Assembly: GCA_050253415.1 (NCBI GenBank)
Contig: JBFWJC010000006.1
Span: 1 to 64,000, forward strand
DNA: 64,000 nt
Source of the DNA: Pedobacter sp.
GTDB lineage: Bacteria; Desulfobacterota; Desulfuromonadia; Desulfuromonadales; Syntrophotaleaceae
Direction of reading: 5' to 3'
A program made the translations under genes and the position numbers. Under the pieces are notes generated by a model. That model had not been told where the DNA came from. It saw only the letters and a program-made list of their open reading frames with translations, and searched no databases. Positions 17,622-59,110 of this stretch are shown here, piece by piece (positions within the stretch are counted from its first letter, which is position 1; each line of letters starts with the position of its first letter).

Positions 17622-17695
<74 letters not shown>

Positions 17696-17793: not shown

Positions 17794-19818
17794 CTACCGT
17801 AAACTACGGATAAGCTGCACATATTGATGTTTGTCATAAGGAATTTCATAAAACAATGCCCTCAAAAAACCATGTTCAGGACCATCAAGCGAGCCATACA
17901 ACTTATTTTTAAGTCTGGTAAAAGGATAAATTTGTCCATCCATAAGGATGCCGGCAACCTTGGAATCAAAAGCTCCCCCCTGCGAGTCCAGGCCAAGAAA
18001 AGTTATAGGTCCGCCTACTGAAAAATCTGTTTTGCCAAGGGTTGCCATCAGCGGGTCTACAGAAGCGTCATCACTAGTGCGAGCATCGAACACCTTTTCA
18101 AGTACTATGGCCTTACGATAAAACCCATCCTCGGTGCCTTCAGATTCGCGAATAACATTAAGGAGGGTATAGGCATTCAGCATAATACCGGGTATATCCT
18201 TACCGACATGTCCGATCATGGCATTAAAGGGCGTATCATGATTGGTCAACCACATATCCACGACCTTTGACTGCTCGAGCTGTTCGGCAATGGCTGTTAT
18301 ATACTGAAAGTAGTTTTCGACGCGGCCATCCAGGTTGGATTGATAGGCCAATTGCAAAATACTCGTAACGTCGAAAGGAAATAACTCAATGGCCTGCAAT
18401 TGATAGGCGAAAAAAAGAGAATTCGCTTCGACGCCGGTGCTGAACTCGGAAAGTTGCTGATACAGATCCGCAAGCTCACGTGCTGCATAAGCTGCAAGAA
18501 AATAGGCATTATCCGGCACGATATCCTGATCGATACGCGCATGTCTCTGGAACAGAGCGCAATACTTTAAAAGAGGACTCTCTACCGGGAAAAGAGTTTC
18601 TATCTCATAAGCTTTGCGACGTCCTTTATAATAGTCGGCAAGAATGATGGATAGTTTTCCCGATGCATCCCACAGACGATGCATAGACACCAGATAATTG
18701 CCCCGTTTGTAATACCCATCAGCAATAAAGCCGTTGGATTGATTGGCTCGCATTGCCAGCGTGTCGTACAATTCGATTCCTTTATCGAGATAGGCCGCGG
18801 CCACCCCAGGTAATTGTTCGAAAAAGCGGATCGTGGCAACGGGATCATCAGGGTCACTCATGCGCCTGGTGACATACGTCAAGAAGCCCATGTACTGGGC
18901 CATGATGGTAGCCCTCCCCTTATTGGTATCCGCCCAAAAGTATGCCAATTGATAAAATTTCCGTGCAGCATTAAACTTGGCTACCAATATGTCGGGATTG
19001 GTTGCGGATTCAAAGTCATTGCGATTGGCAGTCCCCTCAAGAAAAGCTACAGCAAAATTGAGGTTATAGTTATCCGAGGAAACCCCATCCATGCGTTCAG
19101 AGATAGCCTCGACAAGCGTTTTATAACCATTTTCCAGGGTGAGTTTGTCACCGATTGACAAAATGACCGTACCAAGTGAAGCAAGATCAGGCATTTCCTG
19201 TTCGATAATAGCCCGGCGAATAACCAAATGGGCGATATTCTCATACAGGTGAGGTAATTCCTTGACAAAACCGACCTTTGCACGATCAGCATCCATAAGA
19301 ATGTTGTCGACTTCCTGCTTTAATACGACATTTTCCCAAAGAGAAAAGACCGACGAGACGAAACCAGGACTGTTTTTGAGCGACATCTGTCGATAGGCAG
19401 CAAACAAATGCTTCCAGAAATCCACATCCCCTTGTGGTTGTTTGTCGGAAAAGACAGAAATTGCTGTTTCAGCGTTGTCAAGATGGACAATTTCGTCGTT
19501 CGCCAAATACAGGCAAAATTCTGCCAAAGAAAGCCGATAATAGTCCGCCAATGGCTTACCAACTAATAAATCATCCTGTTGCAGGCGCCCATCAGGACTG
19601 ATATCAGAAGCAAGCGTCTGCAACAACTCGTCACGATAGGACTCGATGCTTTCGCCATATTCCTTGCCCTTATCCTGCAATAAGCCCTGCAAATCGTTCT
19701 TTGGATACCAACTAAAACGATAAGCCACATCCAAAAGGCTATCCCACTGGGATGCGCCGGCCAGGGCCGGCAAGACCAACAGCACACCAAGAATAATTCC
19801 CAATCTCACTAATTTCAT
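17794..19818 (-). CDS. Large exported, mostly alpha-helical (TPR-like) hypothetical protein, about 674 aa
   Basis: ATG at 19818 follows GTGAGG. Signal peptide MKLVRLGIILGVLLVLPALAGA; TPR-like segment AYQLQAIELFPFDVTSILQLAY; no recognisable catalytic motif. Confidence 0.75.
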   Translation of the reverse strand: MKLVRLGIILGVLLVLPALAGASQWDSLLDVAYRFSWYPKNDLQGLLQDKGKEYGESIESYRDELLQTLASDISPDGRLQQDDLLVGKPLADYYRLSLAEFCLYLANDEIVHLDNAETAISVFSDKQPQGDVDFWKHLFAAYRQMSLKNSPGFVSSVFSLWENVVLKQEVDNILMDADRAKVGFVKELPHLYENIAHLVIRRAIIEQEMPDLASLGTVILSIGDKLTLENGYKTLVEAISERMDGVSSDNYNLNFAVAFLEGTANRNDFESATNPDILVAKFNAARKFYQLAYFWADTNKGRATIMAQYMGFLTYVTRRMSDPDDPVATIRFFEQLPGVAAAYLDKGIELYDTLAMRANQSNGFIADGYYKRGNYLVSMHRLWDASGKLSIILADYYKGRRKAYEIETLFPVESPLLKYCALFQRHARIDQDIVPDNAYFLAAYAARELADLYQQLSEFSTGVEANSLFFAYQLQAIELFPFDVTSILQLAYQSNLDGRVENYFQYITAIAEQLEQSKVVDMWLTNHDTPFNAMIGHVGKDIPGIMLNAYTLLNVIRESEGTEDGFYRKAIVLEKVFDARTSDDASVDPLMATLGKTDFSVGGPITFLGLDSQGGAFDSKVAGILMDGQIYPFTRLKNKLYGSLDGPEHGFLRALFYEIPYDKHQYVQLIRSLR

Positions 19819-19834
19819 TGCGCTAGCCTCACGT

Positions 19835-21229
19835 CTAGGGATTAATACATTGAATAGCCGTACGAAGCGCCTCGCACCGGTCAACAAAGTTTTCAGGATT
19901 AAAGACATCAACTTGCAGAGTGTATCCATTTTCCGTGTTTTTGAAAAAGAAAACCATGTTGCGAATGGAACACTTGCCATTCGTATCAAGAGCGGCAGCA
20001 AGTGATGTCTTTAATGGCCATTCGGCATTGGGATCGATACAGGCATTAAGTTGATTAAGGCTGATCATGCGTGCAGGATCATAGTACCCATCGTCGACGC
20101 CATTAAAACTGACGCTTCCAGACACGAGGCCGTCCCCCGAAGGATTTGAAGCGGACTGCTGCGTACCATTTAAAGAACCTGAGGCCTTCCCTACCCCTGC
20201 AAGAACCGGCATTTCAACACCCTTCGTGCCTCCAATCATGCCAACTCTTTCGCCAACGCTGCGCTTAGTGCCGGAGGGCGTACCTGCAGAAGTAACGCCC
20301 TTATTCAGCGGATCGGTAAAATCACCACCAACCCTGGCCGCACTGCGAATGGAAATATCCGTACCAGCGTTTCCAGCCACAAAGGTCTTTGCGCTACCAT
20401 TACCCCGCATGCTTTGTGTCGAATGAGCAATTTTAAAGTTTTTCTGCATTCCGCCAGTCGATGGCAGATCAACATTTGTACCGGATGCCACAGCAAGACC
20501 AGATTGTTTGCGTTTAGGCAATGCCGTGGCCGAAACAGCGGGGGTTTGTTCATAACGATCGCCCAAACTGGTTGATGCAACAAGGGTATCCTGTTGGCTG
20601 CGCGGAGCAAATGACGTCGATATCTTTCCATCAGGCACAGGGCCAGCCACAACCTTGGATTCCTGATACTGGCGGGTAACGGAGCGCGGACCAGGCAAAA
20701 CCGTTTTCTCGACGGTCTGTTCAGGCAAGGCCACAACCCTTGTTGGTAGTTTGGATACCGTCTTTTTGGGAGGAGCCAGCACCACAGGCGGTGGAGGTTC
20801 TACAGGCTTTGGCAATGGAAGGACGACGGGTTTATTCTGAGATAATTCAGGTTGAGGAACAGGTGCGACCTTGGGTTCCACGATGGGAGGCAAAACAGCA
20901 GCCGGTTCTTCCAAAACCATGGCAAGAATTTCAAGTGGAGGTTGTTCCTCCTGTTCAATCACAGGCAGATATAAACTTGCCAAACCAAAAAGGATAATCA
21001 TGCATAAGGAAACCGCAAAAACCAAAAAGACCTGTAAAGCCGGCAAGTCTCGTTTCACCAAGGCGGACCACATGGACCAAAAACCCAAATGCGCCCCGTA
21101 ACACCGACGCTCCATGGGAGTGGTTTGGTGCGGCAACCCCCTTCGATCATCGAAGATATCTATCGTGGCACGTGGTTGGGGAATGTTACAAACCCCCCAA
21201 CCATAAAGACTTTCCTTCAAAAAGATCAT
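19835..21229 (-). CDS. Atypical TonB/TolA-like single-pass energy-transducer candidate
   Basis: One TM helix (VFLVFAVSLCMIILFGLASLY), a Pro-rich spacer (PPIVEPKVAPVPQPE...PKPVEPPPPV), a Gly/Ser-rich linker and a C-terminal domain with four Cys; ATGA-coupled to the exbD-like gene. Confidence 0.65.
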   Translation of the reverse strand: MIFLKESLYGWGVCNIPQPRATIDIFDDRRGLPHQTTPMERRCYGAHLGFWSMWSALVKRDLPALQVFLVFAVSLCMIILFGLASLYLPVIEQEEQPPLEILAMVLEEPAAVLPPIVEPKVAPVPQPELSQNKPVVLPLPKPVEPPPPVVLAPPKKTVSKLPTRVVALPEQTVEKTVLPGPRSVTRQYQESKVVAGPVPDGKISTSFAPRSQQDTLVASTSLGDRYEQTPAVSATALPKRKQSGLAVASGTNVDLPSTGGMQKNFKIAHSTQSMRGNGSAKTFVAGNAGTDISIRSAARVGGDFTDPLNKGVTSAGTPSGTKRSVGERVGMIGGTKGVEMPVLAGVGKASGSLNGTQQSASNPSGDGLVSGSVSFNGVDDGYYDPARMISLNQLNACIDPNAEWPLKTSLAAALDTNGKCSIRNMVFFFKNTENGYTLQVDVFNPENFVDRCEALRTAIQCINP

Positions 21230-21702
21230 GGTTCAGAATCTCCAGCGACCGTTTCGGCTTCTACAACGGTGCGACTACCATCGGTCCAAACCTTAGCTAT
21301 GACGCCGGCCGCGTAAAGGAAATCCTGACTAAGTGAAGTTTTTTCAGGAAGCAGCATAGGGCGTATATTGCGCTGCTTCAGAGCAAGTACTTCCGGCAAC
21401 AACTGTTCCTTGGTAAGGATTTTATCCTCGTTTCCGGAGACGGTTTTCCCCATGCCAGCCTTAAGCATACGATACGGCGTGGGATGCTTTTCAGATACAG
21501 CAAACACCTGCAACTCCCAGGCTTCCTGCACCTTGGCAACGGGCTCCATGAGTCCGTGTTCCGGGACAACTGGAACATCCATTTCCGCTAGTTTTATCGT
21601 GATATTATCTGGTGCGCTCGGTATCAGGCTGAGGCTTATCAGCAGCAGAAAAGCCAGATCGGTAAAAGAAAATAGCCAGGTTTGGCTGTTCTTCATTTTC
21701 AT
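21226..21702 (-). CDS. ExbD/TolR/MotB-like motor B subunit
   Basis: N-terminal TM WLFSFTDLAFLLLISL carries the conserved Asp. The small ExbD-like periplasmic domain has no OmpA-type peptidoglycan-binding motif. Confidence 0.75.
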   Translation of the reverse strand: MKMKNSQTWLFSFTDLAFLLLISLSLIPSAPDNITIKLAEMDVPVVPEHGLMEPVAKVQEAWELQVFAVSEKHPTPYRMLKAGMGKTVSGNEDKILTKEQLLPEVLALKQRNIRPMLLPEKTSLSQDFLYAAGVIAKVWTDGSRTVVEAETVAGDSEP

Positions 21703-21716
21703 AACAGTCACCGATC

Positions 21717-22388
21717 CTAAATATCTGAAGAATCGTCTGCCAGTTGCACAATGGCAGCCAATCCCTCATCAATTCGTCTATGCGCCAGGGCATAAAAGAC
21801 TTTACGCATGAATTCCAGGAAGGTGAAACAGATAAGAGCAATAAAAGTCGTATAAAGAGCGGTAGCGATACCGGCTACGGTAACCTCGCTGTTAAGCGTT
21901 CCTGAGTTTGATAGAAAATGCACGACCATCCCGATAATGGTTCCAATAAACCCCATAGGAGGCATTAAGTTGGCCATCATCCCAACGGGATCCAAAAACT
22001 TTTCTTCGAAATAACGCTCGCTGAACTGAAAAGCAGCATCCCGAATAAAAGCATCCGGAGGGATTACCTTGTCAGCGGTGCCACGCTGTTGCTCCTGCTC
22101 ATAATGCAACTTGGTACGTGCAAAAAAAGAAGCGGAAATCAGCGCAAGAGGCATAGAAATATCGGCTGTCATATTGTACAGCGATTTACGACTTTTAAGT
22201 TTGCTGAAATCGTAAAATGACAATGCCCGAAAGGACTGAAAGGATTTAATGAGAGCAAAACCGAAAATGCAGGCCATAATCAGGTAAACGATTAGCTGCA
22301 ACAGCCCTGAATAGCTATTAATCAAATAGGTCAGGACATCAATAATACCGTTGGACAATACGTTAAAGATGCTTTCTTGCTGTGGCAT
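21717..22388 (-). CDS. MotA/TolQ/ExbB proton-channel family protein
   Basis: Three TM segments; MPPMGFIGTIIGM and GIATALYTT channel motifs; GAGGTG SD. Confidence 0.88.
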   Translation of the reverse strand: MPQQESIFNVLSNGIIDVLTYLINSYSGLLQLIVYLIMACIFGFALIKSFQSFRALSFYDFSKLKSRKSLYNMTADISMPLALISASFFARTKLHYEQEQQRGTADKVIPPDAFIRDAAFQFSERYFEEKFLDPVGMMANLMPPMGFIGTIIGMVVHFLSNSGTLNSEVTVAGIATALYTTFIALICFTFLEFMRKVFYALAHRRIDEGLAAIVQLADDSSDI

Positions 22389-22435
22389 ATACATCACCTC
22401 TGAAATTTTCCAAAATTATCCCCCTGGATTGTACT

Positions 22436-22978
22436 TCAGGGGGTGAGCAGTTTTATTTCAAGTTTAGCTGCACCATCTGCCAGACGGGAACATCCCATTT
22501 CCGCCGGGTCGACGACGGCATTCAGAATGGAGCTATCTTTTTTATAACGTTTATTGAAAGTCTTCAGAAGTTTTATAGCACGACGATCCTGTCCGGTTTC
22601 CTCATAGATGGAAGCACTTAAAAGGGTCACTTTCGCAACATCAAGGCGGGTTTCGACATGTTCTTGCGCCTCACTATCCTGAATGATAGGCATGGCGTAA
22701 AGTTCTACGTATTTCTGGACTTCGCAGCAGAACTCCTTTCCGCTACAGGCTTGTTGCGCCTCTTCCGGAGTCATTCGCCGATGCGATTCCAGTTCTTTGG
22801 CAGTGAGGCGAAAAACTTTCAGATTTTGTCTGACATTATCCAGATAGATTTTTTTCTGGGGAATGGTCATATGGCCCAGCACGGGTTCTTTCGGCCAATC
22901 AGCCTTATTGCAGGCACAACAGCCCGAGAGTGCCAGAATCAAAACCGATAGCGCAAGGAAAAGGACGTGTTTTCTCAT
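22436..22978 (-). CDS. Cys-rich lipoprotein with a TPR-like C-terminal helix pair
   Basis: ATG at 22978 follows GAAGGAG. Lipobox LALSG-C; TPR-like SASIYEETGQDRRAIKLLKTFNKRY. Confidence 0.75.
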   Translation of the reverse strand: MRKHVLFLALSVLILALSGCCACNKADWPKEPVLGHMTIPQKKIYLDNVRQNLKVFRLTAKELESHRRMTPEEAQQACSGKEFCCEVQKYVELYAMPIIQDSEAQEHVETRLDVAKVTLLSASIYEETGQDRRAIKLLKTFNKRYKKDSSILNAVVDPAEMGCSRLADGAAKLEIKLLTP

Positions 22979-23130
22979 GCATGACTCCTTCAAGGTTACA
23001 CATAATTGAAGTAAACCAGATATTTCTGGCATTTCCACATCAAGGTTACGACATAAAGACCATGATGAAAGTTTCCTTAAGTACCAAGTCTGATGAAAAA
23101 TCAGATATTGGCTGGACGAAGCAGAGCCTA

Positions 23131-23610
23131 TCAAGGACAACCAACTGCATTCACCGGAACATTGAAAGGCGTATCCGGGCAATGATCAAGTCGATCTTCA
23201 AAGCCACCCGAGTCGCTATCGCCTCGTGTCGGTGCCGGGCAACCAGCAGCAGTGCCACTGTGCCCCCAATTGAATCAGGACACAGAGGTAGGCACACCGT
23301 CACGATCGGTATCGCGGGAACAACCACGGCGAGTGACCGGTACCCCCGGAGGGGTTTCAAGGCATCGATCTACGACGTCAAGGATGCCATCTTCATCCGC
23401 ATCCAGATATGCCCTGGTTCCCCTGGGTGTTCCCAGTTGAAAAAACAGGCCGGCTGAGCACAGTCATTTCCATCAGGTGTCAGGAGCACGACCGTTGTCG
23501 CCGACATTAATATCAAGAATGGGACGTATATCGCCCCGTAAAGCGATGTCTTGGGTTATAAAATACTTGAGGCCACCACCAAATGCGAATTGAAAACCAT
23601 CATCGGAGGA
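23131..23610 (-). pseudogene. Decayed OmpA/OprF-like gene: last beta-barrel strands plus thrombospondin type-3 (DxDxDG) repeats
   Basis: Manual translation gives FQFAFGGGLKYFITQDIALRGDIR...*WK*LCSAGLFFQLG...DADEDGILDVVDRCLETPPGVPVTRRGC.RDTDRDGVP...*...DSDSGGFEDRLDHCPDTPFNVPVNAVGCP*. There are three internal stops, LCPDSIGGTV lies in a shifted frame, and there is no start codon or OmpA C-terminal domain. Confidence 0.8.
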
Positions 23611-23778
23611 AACTATTTATAACACGACAATGAGTTGCCCCCAAGAATTGTTGTAAAGGTAACCGCACATATCCAGAAGTCAGCTGAATTCTAATTCAAA
23701 TAAACAAAATTGATATATTTTACTCAGCAAAAATCACACCATCCATGGATAATACCAAAAAAACCTTATCTGTCTTGA

Positions 23779-25932
23779 TTACATCCCCGACGAGGCCTGT
23801 CCAGCGACACGGGGTTGCCCTGCTGGAGCTTGCCTTCTCATATCGGTCAAAACACCGAATGCCTCCCCGATATACAAGTCATCCGCTATCTCCTCATCCA
23901 ACTGATTGCCTCCATGTTTATTCTGTGGAGCATCCGTTCCGAAGAGACCGGTGTCAACAATATCTCTCCTTGATTCCCTTTCCAGTAAGACAGAAGCCAA
24001 CTCAAGGGGACGAAGCGTTTCGTGGCTCCTTTGCAGATTACGTCGGGTTTCTGCGACAAGGGAATCAAAGAGATGACCTTTTTCGACCCTCTGCTGGCTC
24101 AAATGGCGGAGTCGGGAAACATCGGCACCCATATCCCAGCGCTGGAAGGGAACGGCGGTAACGATATCCCAAGGCAATGCATACTCTATATACTTTTCCC
24201 CTGATTCGAGAAAAGCCAAACGATCAGGTAACTCAATATCAGGCTTAACACCCTTAACCTGGGTAGAGCCACCATTGATACGATAAAACTTCTGAACGGT
24301 AATTTTTAAGGCCCCTAACGGTTTAAGCTTTTCCAAAGGGCCATATACCAAGGGTTGATCCATGTCGAAAATAGCTTGAACCGTGCCCTTGCCGTGCGTC
24401 CCCCCTCCTCCTACCACAACGCCTCGCCCATAATCCTGAATGGCGCCAGCTACAATTTCAGAAGCAGATGCACTGAAACGATTCACCAGAACTACCAATG
24501 GCCCCGTATAGGCGATCCCCGGATCCTCATCCTCAAAAACACTGATATTACCGTCGCTATTTTTTACCTGAACAACGGGACCCTTTGAAATGAAAAGACC
24601 AGCAACGCTGATGGCATCCGACAAAGACCCACCCCCATTGTTCCTTAGATCCAGAACAAGACCGGCAATCCCTTGCTTAGTTAAAGTGGCGAGTTCAGTA
24701 CGCACATCATCGGTAACATTTCTAGCGGTTTTTCCACCACGACTACCTTGAAAATCCCTATAAAAAGAGGGAATACGCAAATATCCATAAACCTGCCCCG
24801 GCATTCCGGGAATGGGTACTGTCGTACTCTTGGCAAAACCTTCCTCGATTTCAACAACGTCACGCGTAATGGCTATGACCTGTTCTCGACCAGTCGGTTT
24901 TTGAATGGTGAGACGTACTACTGTACCTTTTTTTCCTCTGATCAATTGAACCGCGTCGCGTAAGCGTGTCTCAGTAACATCAATAGGGTCCTGATCCCCC
25001 TCACCTACTTTTACAATGGTATCTTCAGCAGACAATTGCCCCTGTTTGGCAGCCGGGCTGCCAGGGATTATTTCTACTACCCGGATAAATCCATCATCTT
25101 CTCGCAGCGTCGCACCAATCCCCTCAAGGGAACCTTTCATATAAATTTCAAAATCTTCAAGGGCATCCGGAGCCATATAAGCTGAATGAGGGTCATACGC
25201 TCGCACAAAGGCATTAATGAAACGATCATAATGGTCCTGTTCTGTTTGTTCTAACAGACGGGTCAGTAAATGCTGAATACTTCGTCGAACTTTCTGACTG
25301 GCCTCTTGAAGCAAAACTTTGTCGGTACGCGTATCAGTATATTCATCATCCTTTTTATTTGTAGAAGGATGATTTGAATCCCGCTCTTCCAAAAGCTGAA
25401 CATAACGCATCAAAACCTGATATTTAAGAATCTGGTGCCAGCGTTTTTGGAGCTCGATATCATCTTTTGCGTAACCTATCTTGTCCGGATCTGTTTCAAA
25501 AAACTCCTTACGCTTAAAGTCAAATCCGTTGTCAAGAATTTCAGGCACCATGTCTACGACGGTTTCAATTCGCAGTCGCAGCAAACGCGCACCGATGCGT
25601 GGCAACAGAAGATCCCCATTCACGATGGCGTCGTCAATAGTATGTCTATACTGCCGCAACTGATCCATATCAGATTGAGTAAGAAATCGCTTTTGGGAAT
25701 CAAGTTGCTGCACATACAAATCAAAGGCCGCTTCAGACAAAGTATCGTCGAGTGCCTTATGGCTGAAGTGGTTAACAGTCATTTGCTGTCGAATCAAATG
25801 TGTCAAAAGTCTGGTTCTCAGACGAACAAGATCTTCGGGATTCTCCTGCGATGAGGGACCGGCCCAGGAACCGGTAACCGCCACGAGCAAAACAACAGCA
25901 AGCAGGTAAAATCGAATTTTTTTAAATTTCAT
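23779..25932 (-). CDS. prc: Tail-specific (C-terminal processing) protease Prc/Tsp, S41
   Basis: Signal peptide, YDPHSAY, PDZ (GIGATL), DLRNNGGG, SASASEI, GKGTVQ, KFYRINGGSTQ, ALPWD. Confidence 0.93.
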   Translation of the reverse strand: MKFKKIRFYLLAVVLLVAVTGSWAGPSSQENPEDLVRLRTRLLTHLIRQQMTVNHFSHKALDDTLSEAAFDLYVQQLDSQKRFLTQSDMDQLRQYRHTIDDAIVNGDLLLPRIGARLLRLRIETVVDMVPEILDNGFDFKRKEFFETDPDKIGYAKDDIELQKRWHQILKYQVLMRYVQLLEERDSNHPSTNKKDDEYTDTRTDKVLLQEASQKVRRSIQHLLTRLLEQTEQDHYDRFINAFVRAYDPHSAYMAPDALEDFEIYMKGSLEGIGATLREDDGFIRVVEIIPGSPAAKQGQLSAEDTIVKVGEGDQDPIDVTETRLRDAVQLIRGKKGTVVRLTIQKPTGREQVIAITRDVVEIEEGFAKSTTVPIPGMPGQVYGYLRIPSFYRDFQGSRGGKTARNVTDDVRTELATLTKQGIAGLVLDLRNNGGGSLSDAISVAGLFISKGPVVQVKNSDGNISVFEDEDPGIAYTGPLVVLVNRFSASASEIVAGAIQDYGRGVVVGGGGTHGKGTVQAIFDMDQPLVYGPLEKLKPLGALKITVQKFYRINGGSTQVKGVKPDIELPDRLAFLESGEKYIEYALPWDIVTAVPFQRWDMGADVSRLRHLSQQRVEKGHLFDSLVAETRRNLQRSHETLRPLELASVLLERESRRDIVDTGLFGTDAPQNKHGGNQLDEEIADDLYIGEAFGVLTDMRRQAPAGQPRVAGQASSGM

Positions 25933-26345
25933 CAAGGCTCATCTTTCAGATAGCCCCAAAACCGTGGGGAAAAATAAACGGGTAAACGATTGTTTGTAAA
26001 ACGGGACGCAGGGCCACCCCCAGCAATCCCTTGTAATATTTGATAAAGACTTTTTGCAAGAAACGTGGAACTTCATTTTGAACTCGCGGCAAGGTTCATT
26101 CCTGACGACCATTCAAAGCATACAATACCTTGCTAACCCACTTGTGTGCAATATTACCTGTTTAAAATGTCGTTTAAAGGTGACCTGACAAAAACTTCTA
26201 TAAATACCGCTCATTGGAAAACTCTGTATTTATGTATTCTTCAGTTTCAAACAACGCAGACAATCGGATACTTGACTGCGCCAAAGAGGCTGATAAAGTC
26301 TCAAACGACTCGATAACTTTAATGGATGGAATCAGGGGGGATGTT

Positions 26346-26867
26346 ATGAAGGCTCGGTTTGTCAGCACCATGGTAGCCCTTTCGTTGGCTTTACTGTCGG
26401 GGTGTAAAAGTGAACGTCCGGACCCTGCAGAGACCAATGTGGAAGCGTCTTTAACACGACCGCCAGCAAATGGCGCTGCTATTATTACGCATATTACCGA
26501 GGAAAATGATTACCGGCAATGGCCACTCTACCCGGATAAGGGAGTGCTGTATCCTGGGAAACACCCCCATGGATCGCTGCTGATAACCTATGTATCTCCC
26601 AAGACACTGCTTGCATTAGAGAGCAAGCAAGGTCGGTTACCGGATGGGACGATCATTGTCAAAGAAAACTATAACCTTCAGAATAAGCTACAGGCAACAA
26701 CTGTGATGTATCGCCTGGACGGATATAATCCCGAAGATGGAGACTGGTTCTGGCTGAAATATGCACCGGACCAAACCATCCTGGAGGAAGGCAAACTTGA
26801 AGGGTGCATAAAGTGTCATCAAACGGTAAAAAGCAATGATTGGATTTTTTCTGGGAAGGTAAAGTAA
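26346..26867 (+). CDS. Cytochrome P460-family c-type cytochrome, lipoprotein
   Basis: Lipobox LLSG-C; YRQW, PDGTIIVKENY, GDWFW and a single C-terminal CIKCH followed by DWIF. Confidence 0.85.
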   Translation: MKARFVSTMVALSLALLSGCKSERPDPAETNVEASLTRPPANGAAIITHITEENDYRQWPLYPDKGVLYPGKHPHGSLLITYVSPKTLLALESKQGRLPDGTIIVKENYNLQNKLQATTVMYRLDGYNPEDGDWFWLKYAPDQTILEEGKLEGCIKCHQTVKSNDWIFSGKVK

Positions 26868-44304: not shown

Positions 44305-45510
44305 TCAGCGCTGCAATAACCGGGACACAGGAACAACCTGTATGTCTTGCTGACGCAGATACGCCGCTTCTTGACCTAATGCCTTAATCGTCTCCGGATA
44401 CGGATGACAGATGACCACCACTTTATGACGCGAACGGGCAATTTTCACTGCTTCGCGTAATTGGCGGGCGATGGCATCGACATTTCGGTTGTTATCAAGA
44501 AAAACATCCCGGCTGACAGAAGCAATATTGGCCCTATGAGCCTCGGATAGAGCAATCGACCCAGGACTTGTACGGCTGTCCACAAAAAACCAGCCACCTT
44601 CCTTCATCACCTCGAACACGGCCTGCATCCCCTCCGGATATTGCGTGAACCGCGACCCCATGTGATTATTGCCGCCGACGGCATGAGGTACTTTTAAAAA
44701 CATGCTGGTCACCCGGCTCTGAATCTCTGTCCGATCCTGTCCAAGAAGCAACGCGCCTGGTCCGGGATTGTTTTGCGGATAGCTATCGGGTTCCATGGGC
44801 ATATGCACAAGGATTTCCCGGCCGGCACGATGCGATAATTCGGCCGACTCTCTGGTATGCAGTTCCTCAGGCATGACGGCCATGGTCAAATTGAGATCGA
44901 GCGCCAGCAATTTACGTACAGCATGCAGGTCGCGTCCAAGGTCATCGACAATAATGGCAATCTGCGCTTTGGGCCGGATTTTTGACGGTTTGATATCAGA
45001 TCGCTTAAAGTGCAAGAAAAAAATAGGACTTCCCTGTAGAGAAATGCAGACAGGCTGACCGGCGGCACCACTGCCTTTCATCTCAAGCTGAGATGATTGA
45101 CGAACCAAGTCTTGAGTCAAAGAGTTATACCAAGCATCGCCGGGGAAAGTAGACGGCAAAAAGTAATGCGTTACGCCATTTTCTTCCCTTACGTTCATCC
45201 CTGTAAAGGAAATACCCTGCCGCCATAAGGAACGTTCAATGTCCAACTGAACTGCAGAGCTCAAAACAAGGTTCTGGTCCGGGTCAACAGGCGTCCTGAC
45301 TTCCGGTTCCGGCAGGGTCACTACCGGTGCAGGGGGAGTCGTGGTGTGTATATTTGGCTCCGGCGCGCGTTGCACAAAAGTCAGTAACATAAGTGAAACG
45401 ACCAGAAAACCAATCAGAAACAACGATGCAAGAAGAACTTTGAACGTCCGATCAGGCTGTTGCTTTTTAGGCGGGGTTTTCCGCCGGGGTTGTTTTTTTT
45501 TGGTAGCCAT
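44305..45510 (-). CDS. Divergent polysaccharide deacetylase family (YibQ-like), membrane anchored
   Basis: IAIIVDDLG, HMPMEP, NNHMGS, FVDSRT, RDVFLD, ICHP. Confidence 0.9.
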   Translation of the reverse strand: MATKKKQPRRKTPPKKQQPDRTFKVLLASLFLIGFLVVSLMLLTFVQRAPEPNIHTTTPPAPVVTLPEPEVRTPVDPDQNLVLSSAVQLDIERSLWRQGISFTGMNVREENGVTHYFLPSTFPGDAWYNSLTQDLVRQSSQLEMKGSGAAGQPVCISLQGSPIFFLHFKRSDIKPSKIRPKAQIAIIVDDLGRDLHAVRKLLALDLNLTMAVMPEELHTRESAELSHRAGREILVHMPMEPDSYPQNNPGPGALLLGQDRTEIQSRVTSMFLKVPHAVGGNNHMGSRFTQYPEGMQAVFEVMKEGGWFFVDSRTSPGSIALSEAHRANIASVSRDVFLDNNRNVDAIARQLREAVKIARSRHKVVVICHPYPETIKALGQEAAYLRQQDIQVVPVSRLLQR

Positions 45511-45560
45511 AAATTAGGGGGATGGTGCATCCCCCCCTTTGAATGAGTGAAATAAAGTGA

Positions 45561-46880
45561 TCAGGCGGCGGTTTTTTTTAAGCCCTTGAGTAATTCCCAC
45601 CCTTTGAGCAAATCGAGCGCACGTAACAGCTGATAATCATGCTGCATCCCTTGTTCATCAATCAAGGCTTGCTCGGATTCTTGCGTACCGACGGAATCGG
45701 CATCGGGCTTACGCTCACTCTCCATATGATTGTCGAGATCTTTTTCACGAAGAGTGATGTTGTCACCCACTTCTTTAAGTTCCATTTGACGTACAACAAT
45801 ATCGGGAGTGATGCCTTTGGCCTGAATCGAGGTCCCCGAAGGGGTATAATAACGTGCTGTGGTAAGACGCAACCCAGCTTCATTTTCCAGACCAATCACC
45901 GTTTGCACCGAACCTTTACCAAAACTTTGGGTGCCTAGAATGACCGCCCTGTGATTATCCTGTAACGCGCCAGCAACAATTTCGGAAGCACTGGCGCTGC
46001 CGCCGTTAATGAGTACAACCATGGGATAATCCGGTTCAGTTCCCATACGATGCGCTTCAAAGCGCATACGACTGTCTTCAACACGACCTTCTGTATAGAC
46101 GATCAAGCCTTCCCGGAGAAACAGATCAGCAACATCTGCGGCCTGATCAAGCAGGCCCCCAGGATTATTTCGCAAATCGAGAACCAGTCCCTGAAGAGGC
46201 GCATGATTCGCGGAGTGTAAACTTTTAAGTGCATTTTTCAGATCTTTGGCGGACCGCTCCTGAAACTGAGCGAGTCGCACGTATCCGAATCCGTTTTCAA
46301 GCATGCGGAATTTCACGCTCTTCACAACGATGATTTCGCGGGTCAAAGTATATTCACGCGGCTTATCAAAGGAAGACCGCATAATCGTGATCGTTACGTT
46401 GGTTCCTTTTGGACCACGCATCATCTTGATGGCTTCCATAATCGAGAGATCTTTGGTCCAACGATCACCGATTTTAACAATCACATCGCCTGCAGCCAGT
46501 CCGATACGATAGGCGGGGGTATCCTCAATGGGAGAAACGATGGTCAAGACACCTTCTTTCAGGGTTATTTCAATCCCCAAACCACCAAACTCGCCAGAGG
46601 TATCGATCTGCATTTCCCGAAACATATCCGGTGAAAGATAAGACGAATGAGGGTCAAGTGCACCCAACATGCCATTAATGGCCCCTTCGATAAGTTTCGA
46701 CATGGGCACTTCTTCCACATAACTGTTCTGAATAATAGTCAAAACATCGGTAAACTGCTCGAGCTCCTTATAAGGAGTGCCGGTTTCGGCTTCGCTGCAG
46801 CCGACAAAAAGATTTGCCATCCAGCACCCCATTACCAGGGTAAACAGCAACAATAAGGCAATCCGCTTCCCCTTAGCCAT
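45561..46880 (-). CDS. ctpA: C-terminal processing peptidase S41A
   Basis: LDPHS, GEFGGLGIEI (PDZ), DLRNNPGG, SASASEIV, FGKGSVQ, GITPD. Confidence 0.93.
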   Translation of the reverse strand: MAKGKRIALLLLFTLVMGCWMANLFVGCSEAETGTPYKELEQFTDVLTIIQNSYVEEVPMSKLIEGAINGMLGALDPHSSYLSPDMFREMQIDTSGEFGGLGIEITLKEGVLTIVSPIEDTPAYRIGLAAGDVIVKIGDRWTKDLSIMEAIKMMRGPKGTNVTITIMRSSFDKPREYTLTREIIVVKSVKFRMLENGFGYVRLAQFQERSAKDLKNALKSLHSANHAPLQGLVLDLRNNPGGLLDQAADVADLFLREGLIVYTEGRVEDSRMRFEAHRMGTEPDYPMVVLINGGSASASEIVAGALQDNHRAVILGTQSFGKGSVQTVIGLENEAGLRLTTARYYTPSGTSIQAKGITPDIVVRQMELKEVGDNITLREKDLDNHMESERKPDADSVGTQESEQALIDEQGMQHDYQLLRALDLLKGWELLKGLKKTAA

Positions 46881-46906
46881 CAAGGTATCTCCTCCCCTAT
46901 GTCTCA

Positions 46907-48082
46907 TCACCGCGGCTTAAGCCACTGGAGGGGATCCAGCGGTGTCCCGCGTTGTCTGATCTCAAAATAGATCGTTTTACTGTCCCCAAAACCGGAAATA
47001 CCAACATTTTCGCCAGCGGTAACCTCCTCGCCAACTTTTTTGACGAGCTGACTGGCCTGTGCGTACAGCGTATAATATCCCCCGCCGTGATCCAGAATCA
47101 ATAAGTTGCCGAATCCCCGGAACGGTTTTGCAAAAACCACTTTTCCGCCGGCGACAGCATGTATGGGGGTACCAGGAACCTGCGCAAGTTCGATCCCCTG
47201 GCTTTCATAACGGCTCCCAAGGTCATCATTGAAATTATTCCCGAAGCGCACCATCAACTTGCCTGGGCCAGGCCATGGCAAGGACCCTTTTTGTTGCTTA
47301 AAACTTCCAGATGCGCCGACCGATGCGCCACTATACTCACGTGATTTGGCGGATTCAAGCGTTTTAAGCAGATTACGCAAACGCTGAGCTTTTTCTTTCA
47401 ACCCGGCAATTTCCCCGGTTAACTCTGTACGATTTTGGCGCAGTTTGTTAAGAGTAGATGTGTGGGTCTGACGGCCCTTATCGAGTGTCTTGTGGCTGGC
47501 ATCGAGAACATTCAGACGTCTTTGCTGTTCGCTACGCAGGTGTTCAAGCTCCTGCAATGCATCGCGTAAAACATGCCAATCGTCACGATAATTTTTAAGA
47601 AGCTCACGATCCTGTCTAACAAGACGCGTAAGGTAAAAAAAGTTTTCTGCAAGTTGCGAGGGGGAACCCTTTTCAAATAAAACTTTAAACAGGCGCATTT
47701 CGCCTCGCCGATATAATGCCCTCAGTCGCCGACGGACATATTGCTCTCTTTCGGAAATTTCCTTACGTAAGAGTTCGGCACGTTTTTCTTTACCGCCGAT
47801 GTCCTTATTCAAATCGTTCAATCGTGTTTGCAAGCGGCGGGAATTTTTTTGCAGCCCGGATAATTCTTTATCCAGTTGCGCCAATTCCTGTTGGACTGCC
47901 CCTTCCTGCTCACGACTACTGACCAATTGTTTTGAGAGTCTATCGATACGTGCTTGAATTTCCTTGAGGCTCTGACGTTGGCGATCGACATCATCCCCCC
48001 TTGCGGGCACCGCAAGACATAACAGCAACATAAGACAGCAAACAAGCCGCGCGATAGAACAAAGGGTCTGGAAACGTGCCAT
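46907..48082 (-). CDS. envC: Murein hydrolase activator EnvC (coiled coil plus degenerate M23)
   Basis: Signal peptide, long coiled coil, LPWP, GNLLILDHG, YFEIR; the M23 zinc ligands are absent; follows ftsEX. Confidence 0.85.
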   Translation of the reverse strand: MARFQTLCSIARLVCCLMLLLCLAVPARGDDVDRQRQSLKEIQARIDRLSKQLVSSREQEGAVQQELAQLDKELSGLQKNSRRLQTRLNDLNKDIGGKEKRAELLRKEISEREQYVRRRLRALYRRGEMRLFKVLFEKGSPSQLAENFFYLTRLVRQDRELLKNYRDDWHVLRDALQELEHLRSEQQRRLNVLDASHKTLDKGRQTHTSTLNKLRQNRTELTGEIAGLKEKAQRLRNLLKTLESAKSREYSGASVGASGSFKQQKGSLPWPGPGKLMVRFGNNFNDDLGSRYESQGIELAQVPGTPIHAVAGGKVVFAKPFRGFGNLLILDHGGGYYTLYAQASQLVKKVGEEVTAGENVGISGFGDSKTIYFEIRQRGTPLDPLQWLKPR

Positions 48083-48084
48083 GG

Positions 48085-48981
48085 TTAAATCCTGACGAAT
48101 TTTCTCAGGGAAAGCACACTGCCTGTAAGCCCCAGAATCAAGCCGCAACCTGCCATACCCCATTGTTGCACCGGTGAAAGGAAAAGGATGCCATCGGTAC
48201 CGGTTACCATCAAAATCCCGTAAAGCCCTTCCTGCAGTACCAGCGTAAAAACCACCCAGACGCCGACCAATGCGAGCACACCACCGACGACACCCTGTAA
48301 GGCGCCCTCAATCAGAAAGGGCATTTTAATGAACAAAGGCGTTCCGCCGACGAGGGTCATTATCTCTATTTCCTCGCGACGGGCATAAAGGGTTAGTTTA
48401 ATGGTGTTCGCAACAATGAACAACGCGGCAAATAACAAAAAACCGCCAAATACAATCCCGGCGACTTTTAACAACCCGACAAAGGCATCGAAACGTTCCA
48501 GCCATTCCGGTTCGTAGCTTACATCCGCCAGTTCCGGAATCTCTTTCAGCCGCTGCACCACGCTTTCTACGCCGATTTTGTTCTGATTGTCCTCAAACAG
48601 AACGACTTCCAATGAGGCCGGTAAAAAATCGGTCCCGACCCCATCCAGAAGATCGGCATCATCCCCGAGGCGTTCTTTAAAACGTGTAAAAGCCTCGTCA
48701 CGACTCACAAATTGAACCCGCTCAATTTCGGGCATCGCCTCAAGTTTGGTCTTCCACTGTTTCACCTTATTCGCATCGGGAACCTTGTCGAAATAAGCGA
48801 CAACCTGGATTTCACGACTCCACTGCTGTGCCACCTGCTGTACGTTAATCACAACAATGGCAAAGAAACCGATAATCATGAGAGCAACAGCTACAGTACC
48901 TATAGCGGCACTGCACAGAACAGGTGTCTGCCTCAGATTGCGCCCTACCCTGCGCATGAAATATCCGATAGATTGCAGCAC
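48085..48981 (-). CDS. ftsX: Cell division permease-like protein FtsX
   Basis: Four TM segments, LPAS, NTIKL..YARREEIEIM.LVG, PFLIEG. Confidence 0.93.
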   Translation of the reverse strand: MLQSIGYFMRRVGRNLRQTPVLCSAAIGTVAVALMIIGFFAIVVINVQQVAQQWSREIQVVAYFDKVPDANKVKQWKTKLEAMPEIERVQFVSRDEAFTRFKERLGDDADLLDGVGTDFLPASLEVVLFEDNQNKIGVESVVQRLKEIPELADVSYEPEWLERFDAFVGLLKVAGIVFGGFLLFAALFIVANTIKLTLYARREEIEIMTLVGGTPLFIKMPFLIEGALQGVVGGVLALVGVWVVFTLVLQEGLYGILMVTGTDGILFLSPVQQWGMAGCGLILGLTGSVLSLRKFVRI

Positions 48982-49046
48982 GATTCATTCCCTTCAGAAC
49001 AAAATAAGATGTGGTAACGTGAAACTTCAGACTGGAAAAGGCAGGG

Positions 49047-49712
49047 TCAGGGGGTATGGTCGTCGACCAGACGTCCTTTGTCAAGAGACACTATTCGACG
49101 TGGGTAACGTCGAATCATTTCCCTGTTATGCGTAGCAAGCAATACGGTCGTGCCTCGCGCATTGGCCCCTTTGAATAATTCCATAATTTCATATGTAACG
49201 TCATCATCAAGGTTACCGGTCGGCTCATCGGCAAGCAAAATCAACGGATCGGTAACCAATGCACGGGCAATGGCAGCTCGTTGTTGTTCTCCCCCTGATA
49301 GCTGCAGAGGAAAACGGTTGAGCTTGCCCTGCAAGCCTACATGCTTGAGTGCCTGATAGACCTTGTTACTTATTTCATACCGCTTTTTTCCCTGCATTTC
49401 CAAGGGGAATGCCACATTTTCAAACAAGGTACGCGTTGAAATAAGCTTGAAATCCTGAAAAACGATGCCCAGCTTGCGACGAAGCATGGGGATACGCCAG
49501 GAACGCATACGAGTTATATTCATGCCATTGATCAGGATCTGACCCCGGGTCGGCTTTACTGCACCATAGAGTAATTTCAAGAGGGTGGATTTACCGGCTC
49601 CTGAGGGGCCAGTAAGGTACAGGAAATCACCTTTTGGCACCTTAAGGCTGAATTCCGTCAGGGCAGTGGCTTCCTTTTGATAAGACATGCAGACATTGTA
49701 AAGTTGAATCAT
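49047..49712 (-). CDS. ftsE: Cell division ATP-binding protein FtsE
   Basis: GPSGAGKST, VFQDFKL, LSGGEQQR, ADEPTGNLD. Confidence 0.95.
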   Translation of the reverse strand: MIQLYNVCMSYQKEATALTEFSLKVPKGDFLYLTGPSGAGKSTLLKLLYGAVKPTRGQILINGMNITRMRSWRIPMLRRKLGIVFQDFKLISTRTLFENVAFPLEMQGKKRYEISNKVYQALKHVGLQGKLNRFPLQLSGGEQQRAAIARALVTDPLILLADEPTGNLDDDVTYEIMELFKGANARGTTVLLATHNREMIRRYPRRIVSLDKGRLVDDHTP

Positions 49713-49719: not shown

Positions 49720-50109
49720 CTACCAGTCGCGATAAGGTACGCCGTTTAGTCCCACCAGGTCGCTACCGCTATGAACATCGAAAACGGTACCAATATCTCC
49801 CACGGCAGGATCGATAACTTCAGGAGCTATGGTGTACCATGTTTCCGCACTTCTGGTAAAGGGGTCCTTGGGGAGGTCTCGCAGGTACCGTTTTTCAACG
49901 AGCTCATCGAGACTATTGGGATATCTGCGCTGATCTGCATAAAACGCGTCTATGGCTTTGCGCATCTGGTACAGGTTTTCGCTTAACACGGTCTCGCGGG
50001 CTTTGATGACATTACGCTGGTAATGAGGCACGGCAATTGAGGCCAGGATAGCGACGATCGTCATGACAATCATGAGCTCAATGAGCGTAAAAGCGCGGCA
50101 AAACCGCAC
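49720..50109 (-). CDS. Type II secretion pseudopilin (GspG/OxpG-like); start codon uncertain
   Basis: Prepilin motif A|FTLIELMIVM, YP.SL.ELV...YLR..P.DPF. Confidence 0.85.
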   Translation of the reverse strand: MRFCRAFTLIELMIVMTIVAILASIAVPHYQRNVIKARETVLSENLYQMRKAIDAFYADQRRYPNSLDELVEKRYLRDLPKDPFTRSAETWYTIAPEVIDPAVGDIGTVFDVHSGSDLVGLNGVPYRDW

Positions 50110-50125
50110 GTCTTTGTTAACAACT

Positions 50126-50617
50126 TTACCAGGAACTATACGCTGTTCCGTCAAGAGCGGTTCGGTCACTTTTAGAATAGACATCATAGATATCCTTCCC
50201 ATCCCAGGAAGTAGAATCCGGGGCATCCCGGTAGCCTCGCAAGCCCCATCCTTGTCCATCGTCAAAAGGATCGACAGGTATACGCCGTAAATATTTGCGG
50301 GGAAATGCGTAAAGTCCTTTCCAATCCATACCTTGGACCAACTCCTCAAGACTGACCGGATACCCCGTCTGATCCGCGTCGGCTATAATATTTTTGTTTT
50401 TTACCGCAAGGTCGAAGTCCTCCTTGTATTGATCGATGGCTATGCGTAAGGTTCGCAAAGCTCGCCGAAGTTCCAATTCACGTGTACGTTGAACGGTTAC
50501 TTCAGCCAGTGGCAAGACCGCGCTTACCAGGATGCCAAGAATGGCCACTGTAATGACGACCTCGATCAGGGTAAAACCGGGGCCATTCCGCAATAAATAA
50601 GCTTTACCGGTACGCAT
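50126..50617 (-). CDS. Second GspG-like pseudopilin
   Basis: G|FTLIEVVI, RELELRRALR, YP.SLEELV, YLRRIPVDP. Confidence 0.88.
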   Translation of the reverse strand: MRTGKAYLLRNGPGFTLIEVVITVAILGILVSAVLPLAEVTVQRTRELELRRALRTLRIAIDQYKEDFDLAVKNKNIIADADQTGYPVSLEELVQGMDWKGLYAFPRKYLRRIPVDPFDDGQGWGLRGYRDAPDSTSWDGKDIYDVYSKSDRTALDGTAYSSW

Positions 50618-52924: not shown

Positions 52925-53588
52925 CGATGACGTTATCAATGGGAACCTCCTTATCCAAACTCCCTGGTTCGATCGGGACATTAATTTCCGTTGGTTCGAC
53001 CGGCTGCATGACTTCCACATAGGAGGCTCCGGAAGACGAAATCAGCGATATTGGTTGTTCCGCAGTCTCTATCTGGAAAGTATCTTTATCTTCCTTATAT
53101 TTTACGATCAGATATTGCGATGCAATTTCAAGCAAACGATAGGTATTGTCCGCACCAAAACTGTCACCAGGACCAACGACATACACTTCTCCCTCTACGG
53201 ATAGAAAAACCTTCTGTCGACCTGCGTGGCGCAATTTACCCAAAAAAACAGGGGTGGGCGTGGGAGGAGGAAGAACAACCGGAGGGAGGGGGGCACTTTC
53301 AGTCTGGGATTCCTGGATCTCGGGCAAAGATGCCTGGGCAGGAAGACTAAAAAGTGGAGAAAAAATATTTCTGTTAACCAGTGTTTCCCTCTCTTCCGGA
53401 ACCTGGTTTTTTGGCAATACCTCGCCTGCGGGGGGTGAAGCATCAGGCTTAACCGAAATACCTGTGGATATACCAGGGGCAGGCACGCTCGCTACGCGGG
53501 TTTGGCGGGGCCAGCTAAAGTAGGCGTACACAAGCGCTACCGCAAGGAGTAGTAAAAAGCCGATTAAAGTTTTAACCGAAGTGTTCAT
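52917..53588 (-). CDS. PilP/GspC-like assembly protein
   Basis: N-terminal TM, RNIF, Pro-rich linker, FLG...VFL...VYVV..GD. Confidence 0.65.
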   Translation of the reverse strand: MNTSVKTLIGFLLLLAVALVYAYFSWPRQTRVASVPAPGISTGISVKPDASPPAGEVLPKNQVPEERETLVNRNIFSPLFSLPAQASLPEIQESQTESAPLPPVVLPPPTPTPVFLGKLRHAGRQKVFLSVEGEVYVVGPGDSFGADNTYRLLEIASQYLIVKYKEDKDTFQIETAEQPISLISSSGASYVEVMQPVEPTEINVPIEPGSLDKEVPIDNVIDE

Positions 53589-54139: not shown

Positions 54140-54140
54140 G

Positions 54141-57295: not shown

Positions 57296-57313
57296 GCGAA
57301 AACTCCCAATGAG

Positions 57314-58619: not shown

Positions 58620-58696
58620 TGGCGGGGCTGACGGGACTCGAACCCGCGACCTCCGGCGTGACAGGCCGGCGTTGTAACCGACTCTACTACAGCCCC
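58620..58696 (-). tRNA. tRNA-Asp(GTC)
   Basis: GGGGCTGTAG...CCGGCCTGTCACGCCGG...GGTTCGAGTCCCGTCAGCCCCGCCA. Confidence 0.96.
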
Positions 58697-58735
58697 CGGT
58701 GTTTCTTAGACGCAGGAAGCGCCGTTTAAATTTAA

Positions 58736-58811: not shown

Positions 58812-58910
58812 ATTTTTTACAGCATTTTTAAGCGAGAATGAACCCGCCCAGAGTCTTGCTTTCATCAAAAAAGCACCGCATTCATTAGCGATGCCATTCA
58901 TGAAATTCAA

Positions 58911-59102: not shown

Positions 59103-59110
59103 GATTGATA

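Follow-up and report, generated by a model that had tools for sequence, protein, structure and literature searches.

Operon layout

The window analysed here is a 64,000-nucleotide (nt) stretch, positions 1 to 64,000 of the forward strand of contig JBFWJC010000006.1 (assembly GCA_050253415.1), from a genome deposited as Pedobacter sp. and placed by GTDB in the Syntrophotaleaceae of the Desulfobacterota. It carries an operon of five open reading frames (ORFs), here called g1 to g5, which encode a predicted lipoprotein (g1), a putative membrane motor of the MotA/ExbB kind (g2 and g3), a TonB/TolA-like single-pass protein (g4) and a secreted protein modelled as a helical repeat (g5). All five were found on the minus strand, where a first-pass annotation of this DNA had put five co-directional genes between tRNA-Cys and prc: g1 at 22436-22978 (180 amino acids, aa), g2 at 21717-22394 (225 aa), g3 at 21226-21702 (158 aa), g4 at 19835-21229 (464 aa) and g5 at 17794-19818 (674 aa). 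The tRNA-Cys gene (17622-17695) lies 3' of the operon, and prc (23779-25935), encoding a tail-specific protease with Peptidase_S41, TSP_NTD and PDZ domains, precedes it. The gaps are 41 nt between g1 and g2, 14 nt between g2 and g3, -4 nt between g3 and g4 (an ATGA overlap) and 16 nt between g4 and g5. An alternative start of g2 at 22388, for which a GAGG is better spaced than for the start at 22394, would give a protein of 223 aa and a first gap of 47 nt.

Motor proteins g2 and g3

Of the five proteins, g2 alone falls in a curated family. It matches Pfam MotA_ExbB (PF01618) with 34.1 bits against a cut-off of 22.9, over aa 131-200 only, and the NCBIfam subfamily models for PomA, TolQ, ExbB, MotA and ZorA gave 13-18 bits, far under their cut-offs. 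A hydropathy scan placed three hydrophobic segments at aa 31-49, 143-161 and 171-189, as in ExbB/TolQ; the second and third span 21828-21968 on the minus strand. When a g2 profile built from 19 sequences was searched against PDB, PomA was retrieved at E 0.007, ExbB at 0.016, TolQ at 0.06 and MotA at 0.07, and a local hidden Markov model (HMM) of g2 gave 19-28 bits on canonical ExbB paralogues, 18 on TolQ and 14 on MotA. g2 is therefore a deep and roughly equidistant branch. Residues G148, G151, T152, G155, T182 and T183 are invariant in 19/19 homologues. They make up a G-x-x-G-T motif in the second transmembrane segment and a Thr-Thr pair in the third, which align to the region of the third and fourth transmembrane segments of PomA; we take the invariant threonines to be the equivalents of the ExbB/TolQ threonines. 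The conserved cytoplasmic loop of g2 is IPPDAFIRDAAFQFSERYFEEKF.

The single-pass protein g3 is encoded 14 nt after g2, which is the position of a B subunit. Its transmembrane helix (aa 9-27; 21622-21678, minus strand) contains an FTDL motif whose Asp15 (21658-21660) is invariant in 22/22 homologues. None of the 22 family members matched the ExbD model (PF02472), and a marginal match to MotB_plug was seen in two of them (E 0.19). Comparison with ExbD/TolR by hhalign gave a probability of 0.75%, confined to the transmembrane helix, the local g3 HMM reached at most 4.6 bits on canonical ExbD/TolR, and a g3 profile search of PDB sequences gave nothing meaningful. A Pfam domain was absent from all 120 relatives of g3 listed among 217, and NCBIfam returned chance-level rows only for g3 and for g1. 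The neighbours of g3 in the ESM Atlas were its own cluster and a Myxococcota cluster; a low-confidence model from the same source (pLDDT, a predicted score in the local distance difference test, of 0.63) reached a template modelling (TM) score of 0.47 to a TolR cluster and was taken as a lead only. The B-subunit role is thus given to g3 because of its position, size and invariant Asp, and its periplasmic domain, as judged from sequence comparison, belongs to no recognised family.

Transducer-like protein g4

The layout of g4 is that of TonB/TolA, with an N-terminal anchor that crosses the membrane once and, after it, a periplasmic spacer rich in Pro. A cytoplasmic N-terminal motif, SLYGWGV..IP.PR..D....DRR (aa 7-30; 21140-21211), precedes the transmembrane helix (aa 67-85; 20975-21031), which is the sole hydrophobic segment. 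A Pro/Val-rich spacer containing 23% Pro (aa 87-200; 20630-20971), a Ser/Gly/Ala/Thr-rich linker (aa 201-375; 20105-20629) and a folded C-terminal head (aa 368-464; 19838-20128) then follow, all on the minus strand. Residues Y9, G10, G12, C397 and C452 are invariant in 20/20 sequences, and the Cys pair C397/C452 sits in the head, which is accordingly of a disulfide type. The head was modelled with a pLDDT of 85.5 and the order beta-alpha-beta-beta-beta-alpha.

In Pfam and NCBIfam no match to g4 was found, TonB_C (PF03544) and FHA included. Against the TonB_C domains of the same genome the head gave an hhalign probability of 0.09% and local HMM scores of -1 to -2 bits. Fold searches with the head stayed at noise level (best Foldseek E 0.51, best VIA Z 3.6) and neither listed a TonB or TolA chain, and its profile had no match among PDB sequences.

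Lipoprotein g1 and solenoid protein g5

A lipobox, LSGC, is located at aa 17-20 of g1 (22919-22930, minus strand), and its Gly-Cys is invariant in 14/14 homologues. The remainder is a small helical protein, for which Pfam gave only sub-threshold matches to TPR_6 and TPR_14. g1 founds a family that is found at the head of every cluster variant.

g5 starts with a signal peptide (aa 1-23; 19750-19818, minus strand). Its AlphaFold2 model is an all-helical repeat, a TPR-like alpha-solenoid, with a mean pLDDT of 88 and a predicted TM score of 0.82. Foldseek against PDB matched generic helical-repeat folds only (best E 0.023), and the wide VIA search gave designed repeat proteins as the best hits (Z 11.1); an enzyme-like or specific fold match was found by neither. 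The ESM Atlas neighbours of g5 were of TPR type only (0.90-0.92), which we regard as a lead only. Searching PDB sequences with the g5 profile yielded nothing meaningful, the TPR rows of Pfam were all sub-threshold, and NCBIfam gave no match to g4 or g5 at E <= 1.

Taken protein by protein, the first-pass annotation was borne out. It had read MotA/TolQ/ExbB channel motifs in g2, the Asp-containing transmembrane helix of a motor B subunit in g3, a Pro-rich spacer in a single-pass g4 described as atypically TonB-like, a lipoprotein in g1, and a signal-peptide protein with TPR-like helices in g5.

Predicted docking of the g4 head on g5

The complex of g5 with the g4 head was predicted with a score of 0.69 (0.69, 0.00 and 0.70 in the three runs), and all three controls gave 0.00. 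This mark is reached by 116/157 solved complexes and by 2/215 mismatched pairs, and the partners have a pLDDT of at least 70. The predicted docking site on g5 comprises aa 234-271, 311-319, 381-392 and 634-644, and the residues E241, R242, E270, G311, Y315, R318, R319, K388 and Y641 within it are invariant or nearly so. The mean majority frequency was 0.665 in the g5 interface versus 0.573 in the rest of the protein (Mann-Whitney p 0.023). Because neither g5 nor the g4 head has a sequence relative in PDB, it is unlikely that the predictor had merely learnt this pairing from solved structures. The prediction supports a docking of the g4 head on g5.

Distribution and synteny

The orthologue of g5 in Syntrophotalea carbinolica DSM 2380 is Pcar_1652, with 80% identity, which assigns the DNA of the window to a Syntrophotalea. 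Among 5.8 billion cluster representatives 79 relatives of g5 were found, none with a Pfam domain, and all those listed are named 'hypothetical'; the g5 profile retrieved 123 clusters among 1.84 billion representatives. Within the Desulfuromonadales this profile was detected in 29/233 genomes, among them 14/16 of the family to which the window belongs; in the two largest families searched it was detected in 3/116 (f11, 1/72; f17, 2/44). A profile of the distant relatives matched 13/401 genomes of a phylum-wide sample, nine of them strongly, and a hypothetical protein from Maridesulfovibrio frigidus is distantly related to g5. When 185,579 species genomes were scanned, 31 loci were obtained, some of them in metagenome-assembled genomes (MAGs) labelled Desulfobacterales or Desulfobacteraceae.

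The order g1-g5 is kept in 22 of the 25 distinct related loci, which come from the Desulfuromonadales and from Desulfobacterales-labelled MAGs, with g5 identities of 33-94%. As for the three exceptions, L031 and L065 are cut by contig ends and L063 has another motor. Hence the arrangement is beyond chance, and the view of the first-pass annotation that the five genes form one unit is upheld by their co-occurrence in other genomes.

The prc gene adjoins the cluster in six Syntrophotaleaceae loci. A survey of the neighbours of 11 loci outside this family found no recurrent extra partner. Genes for a SPOR protein, an OmpA-family protein, an AMIN-domain beta-barrel, an HtrA-type protease and Lnt occurred once each near these loci, and the neighbour genes may be taken as weak hints towards the envelope or the cell wall. 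A role of g1 as an NlpI-like partner of the neighbouring Prc was also considered and was rejected as the main explanation, since g1 accompanies g2-g5 where prc is not adjacent.

A portable output module behind different motors

Through the distant g5 relatives, four loci of one family (L088-L091) with an ExbB/ExbD-type architecture were revealed. The neighbourhoods of L088, L089 and L090 were examined, and L091 is represented by tblastn matches only. These three loci begin with the gene for a secreted g1-like protein, followed by those for ExbB, an ExbB-ExbD fusion and ExbD; a protein in the TonB position and then a g5-like protein come last. Pfam, which was run on L089 only, identified a canonical ExbB (90 bits), the ExbB-ExbD fusion and a canonical ExbD (58 bits). 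A canonical six-repeat TPR lipoprotein adjoins the g5-like gene in L088, L089, L090 and L086.

Another arrangement was seen in L063 (genome G226, contig 52, 1-1423), where a g4-like protein is encoded directly after a TolR-like gene, of which the 3' end is present, and its N-terminus is nearly identical to that of the TolA of the same MAG, including S-x3-H. In this MAG, in which L092 (contig 151) was also noted, both of these genes come after a TolR-like 3' end. Since the MAG is 79% complete and the evidence lies at contig ends, L063 is suggestive of a g4-type head on a TolA-like N-terminus after a TolR-like gene, and G226 looks like a case in which a duplicated tolQR-tolA region was recruited to g5.

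The g4-head profile, which scored below zero on the TonB_C domains of the genome as given above, reached 75 bits in L063, 33-37 bits in three loci of the ExbBD type and 25-32 bits in two remote loci whose motor is divergent. The g4-like proteins of L063 and of the ExbBD-type loci are each encoded directly upstream of a g5-family gene. The g1 profile scored 22-45 bits on the first gene of the variant loci in all seven that were tested, and in L086 a g1-like and g5-like pair stands alone, the motor being at another locus of the same genome. The YG.G...PMPR motif of g4 occurs only with the divergent motor (20/20 aligned sequences, L085 and, in part, L087) and is lacking in the g4-like proteins, four in number, that stand behind canonical motors. 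Because g1, the g4 head and g5 are shared behind different motors, they are the constant part, and the motor and the anchoring of g4 vary together. Thus, the g1, g4-head and g5 families are a portable output module for Tol/Ton-type motors, with three motor types.

In L087 (G367 contig 9, 9330-14256) two tandem g5-family paralogues of 758 and 861 aa follow one set of g2-, g3- and g4-like genes. A convergent gene for an outer-membrane beta-barrel protein with an AMIN domain lies after them.

Genome background and surroundings in the window

Elsewhere the 4.1-Mb genome contains four canonical MotA_ExbB genes, three ExbD/TolR genes and seven Plug-domain receptors. Two ExbB-ExbD sets were recognised, MotA is present, and some of the Ton genes or ExbB-ExbD sets adjoin receptors. 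There are four TonB_C matches, one of them under the family cut-off. The sole TolB_N (PF04052) match lies on contig 2 at 40.8-41.1 kb, beside TolQ and TolR, and a weak TonB_C match (23 bits, below the cut-off) occupies the TolA position of this locus. As canonical Tol-Pal and Ton sets exist elsewhere, the operon is therefore an extra system and not a replacement. In the window itself, a Pfam scan of the 45 further ORFs revealed no TonB-dependent receptor, TolB/Pal, flagellar or Zorya genes. The term 'receptor-less' of the first-pass annotation thus holds for the window, but not for the genome with its seven receptors.

The cluster is placed among housekeeping genes, and its synteny is conserved within the family. 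The spacer between prc and g1 (22979-23778, about 800 nt) has no convincing ORF and no Rfam match, and a single terminator-like hairpin was noted in it at 23521-23537 on the minus strand. A scan for promoters and terminators gave no more than expected from shuffled sequence, and the Rfam search returned tRNAs only. Just upstream of prc, on the opposite strand, lies a gene for a cytochrome P460-family protein (26214-26864, plus strand). Further away on the minus strand are a cell-division and cell-wall run at 44308-49712 (the ABC ATPase FtsE, FtsX, an EnvC-like M23 peptidase, a CtpA-type S41 protease and a divergent polysaccharide deacetylase) and a type IV pilus or MSH-like assembly cluster at 49723-58522. 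The latter encodes a T2SSF platform protein, a T2SSE/MshEN ATPase, a PilO-like protein and an 800-aa secretin that also matches TPR and cohesin domains. A tandem tRNA array Asp-Val-Asp-Val-Asp of near-identical repeats follows at 58620-59187, again on the minus strand.

Discussion

We lean towards the explanation that the operon encodes an extra, self-contained energy transducer of the Tol/Ton type that acts across the envelope. Family, topology and invariant residues suggest that g2 and g3 would form an ion-driven motor of the 5:2 MotA/ExbB kind in the inner membrane, with a g2 pentamer as the channel and g3 as the axle that carries the proton-accepting Asp15. To judge by its position, its layout and the TolA-like and ExbBD-associated variants, g4 may serve as the motor-coupled transducer in the role of TolA/TonB, anchored by one helix and, in this variant, by the conserved cytoplasmic YGWG...PMPR motif. 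It would cross the periplasm on a linker of about 290 residues, Pro-rich and then Ser/Gly-rich, and end in the disulfide-stabilised head, which is predicted to dock onto a conserved groove of the secreted g5. The strict co-occurrence of g1 and g5, together with their stand-alone pair, points to a joint action of g5 with lipoprotein g1, presumably at or near the outer membrane. Proton flow might then let g4 pull on or remodel the g5-g1 complex, by analogy with TolA-TolB-Pal, and inner-membrane energy would be delivered to a periplasmic or outer-membrane process. What the sequence data show is the anatomy of the genes, their conservation, which proteins do or do not fall in known families, and the association of g1, the g4 head and g5 with three types of motor. 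We infer the 5:2 stoichiometry, that g4 is coupled to the motor, that g1 and g5 are in contact, and that pulling proceeds in a Tol-Pal-like cycle; outer-membrane or cell-wall homeostasis would be our guess for the physiological output.

Several observations weigh against such a transducer. The membership of g2 in the motor family is marginal, its profile giving 14-28 bits on canonical paralogues, and g3 is unrecognisable as ExbD, TolR or MotB by any sequence method used. The transmembrane anchor of TolA/TonB carries a conserved His-containing motif, and the transmembrane helix of g4 is unconserved, with no invariant His in 20 sequences. For the docking, one of the three complex runs ended at 0.00, for the agreement of contacts among the runs a lower bound of 0% is all that is available, and the strictly conserved residues of g5 are not significantly enriched at the interface (9/32 versus 127/674, p 0.13). 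Disrupted copies of the cluster also occur in some genomes, which means either that the genes are dispensable or that the assemblies contain errors. In L023, from a one-contig genome (G009), g4 has a frameshift and is read in two frames; L035 (G103) is a fragmented cluster with g2, g3 and g5 in pieces; and on contig 1 of G004 (1527568-1529585) g5 is split into two ORFs.

On present sequence comparisons, g1, g3, g4 and g5 appear to stand outside any described family, as searches of Pfam, NCBIfam, PADLOC and PDB sequences returned nothing for them. Our literature search found no paper on Pcar_1652 to Pcar_1656, and for Pelobacter carbinolicus with ExbB, TolQ or MotA the matches listed were general Tol, Ton or MotAB papers only. 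The operon was thus matched to no characterised system in these databases or in the literature. Together with the non-TonB_C head of g4 and the co-occurrence of the five genes, this supports what the first pass had proposed, a trans-periplasmic machine of unassigned output driven by the proton-motive force.

Flagellar rotation, TonB uptake, Tol-Pal, gliding and Zorya are, to our knowledge, the few tasks of the MotA/ExbB motor superfamily that are understood, and many 'generic' motors have no known job. It is conceivable, though we hold it only tentatively, that g1, the g4 head and g5 represent an unrecognised class of 'load' for proton-driven 5:2 motors, beside the TonB-receptor, TolA-TolB-Pal and Glt classes. 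Such a class would have its own head fold and solenoid receptor, could be attached to an ExbBD-type, a TolQR-type or its own diverged motor, and would serve the envelope in a function for which anaerobic Desulfobacterota are not yet known to require energy from the inner membrane. The operon offers a compact and conserved five-gene case, with a clearly delimited output module behind three motor types, and this delimitation provides precise, testable partners and point mutants. The module is present in cultured organisms, as the g5 orthologue of Syntrophotalea carbinolica DSM 2380 and the distant relative in Maridesulfovibrio frigidus indicate. Finding its job would widen the list of powered processes across the periplasm of diderm bacteria, and it would add new folds for the step in which a TolA/TonB-type head meets its partner.

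Other explanations have to be weighed on the same evidence. The Vibrio TonB2 system includes TtpB, TtpC and the TPR protein TtpD, and in the same manner g4 could be an unusual TonB that powers the receptors of the genome, with g5 and g1 as auxiliaries like TtpD. The anchor, Pro-rich spacer and small C-terminal domain of g4, the seven Plug-domain receptors, the canonical ExbB/ExbD of related loci, the six-repeat TPR lipoprotein next to L088-L090 and L086, and g2 profile scores that favour ExbB (19-28 bits) slightly over TolQ (18) and MotA (14) would all agree with such an accessory energiser. We nevertheless find it decidedly unlikely: the g4 head is not TonB_C by Pfam, by hhalign (0.09%) or by the local HMM, no TonB chain appeared in the fold searches, and the head is predicted to bind g5. 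Moreover, four TonB_C matches, of which one is under the cut-off, and two ExbB-ExbD sets are already present in the genome, some of them adjoining receptors. Next to the cluster no receptor gene was seen, neither in the window nor near the 11 related loci whose neighbours were scanned. Zorya, too, is powered by motors of the MotAB type, and a weak ZorA row for g2 (E 0.016-0.022) as well as the disrupted copies might speak for a Zorya-like or other membrane-motor defence, or for a decaying remnant without joint function. Both are very improbable in our judgement. g2 has 225 aa and is missing the long tail of ZorA, genes for a ZorC/D-like effector or nuclease are absent, and from PADLOC came the ZorA row alone (E 0.016), with no match for the remaining four proteins; on these grounds of size, missing effectors and PADLOC result, Zorya itself was excluded. 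The housekeeping surroundings with family-wide synteny argue against either variant, and a remnant would hardly keep all five proteins conserved across orders at 33-94% identity with invariant functional residues.

As a last alternative, which we consider unlikely, the operon could belong to the Agl-Glt 'core complex' kind as a divergent member; it would then move a periplasmic shaft laterally or by rotation against a complex in the outer membrane, in place of pulling in the Tol-Pal manner. In Luciano et al. 2011 (PMC3169522) this core comprises the TolQ/TolR-like motor AglR and AglQ/S, GltG, which is TonB-like, and GltD, GltE and GltC, which are TPR proteins; it is conserved in non-gliders, where it has no assigned function. 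Its layout strikingly resembles ours, with g1 as GltE-like, g2 as AglR, g3 as AglQ/S, g4 as GltG and g5 as GltD or GltC, and GltG resembles g4 in its cytoplasmic extension and long disordered linker, as described in PMC3169522 and PMC11761067. An AlphaFold model in the latter source has the C-terminus of GltG docked on the helical GltD, which parallels the predicted docking of the g4 head on g5, and a supplement of PMC3169522 lists the Geobacter GltC homologue as a 629-aa 'hypothetical protein', close to g5 in size. These parallels are countered by the single B subunit found here instead of two, and by the lack of an FHA, TonB_C or above-threshold TPR match for g1, g4 and g5 in Pfam, and of any NCBIfam match for g4 and g5 at E <= 1. 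The 123 clusters among 1.84 billion representatives and the 3/116 genomes of the two largest families imply that a large Glt family is not what the g5 profile detects. 'Pcar' and 'Pelobacter' are also absent from the main text of PMC3169522 and from the 12 of its 15 supplement files that were searched.

Comparison with known systems

Read as a Tol/Ton-type transducer, the operon can be set beside the systems already described. Non-flagellar MotAB homologues have been grouped as the 'generic ion transporter' (GIT) class, which according to PMC12505986 includes ExbBD, TolQR, AglRS and members of unassigned function; g2 and g3 fit this class. The underlying survey covered 205 genomes, and 'Desulf' does not occur in its main text.

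Agl-Glt shares with the operon a receptor-less motor, a single-pass protein resembling TonB, a lipoprotein of TPR type and a large protein built of helical repeats, according to PMC3169522. The operon differs in having one B subunit instead of the two of Agl-Glt (AglQ and AglS), and five genes instead of seven or eight. An FHA domain, a TonB C-terminal-domain-like head and a Pfam-recognisable TPR are absent here, a distinction that draws on published descriptions and on Pfam. The resemblance to an Agl-Glt/TtpC-type core that the first-pass annotation had noticed is one of layout, and the closest evolutionary link found is with operons of the Tol/ExbBD type.

With the Ton system the operon has in common the layout of g4, and relatives of g1, the g4 head and g5 stand behind a canonical ExbB, an ExbB-ExbD fusion and ExbD. 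Unlike Ton systems, it is without a TonB_C domain, an adjacent receptor, and a TtpB- or TtpC-like gene.

In its logic the operon is most like Tol-Pal. Both combine, in one operon, an A subunit with three transmembrane segments, a single-pass B subunit with a membrane Asp, a transducer with a long linker and a small head, a soluble periplasmic partner and a lipoprotein, and the relative L063 has the g4-type head on a TolA-like N-terminus after a TolR-like gene. The two differ in the motor, where g2 and g3 have diverged much further than TolQ and TolR. They also differ in the parts that are replaced, for which no sequence or fold similarity was detected, g5 and g1 having no TolB or Pal match in Pfam. 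Where Tol-Pal has the beta-propeller TolB, the OmpA-like Pal and domain III of TolA, the present operon has an alpha-solenoid, a lipoprotein that is small and helical, and a head of a new disulfide type.

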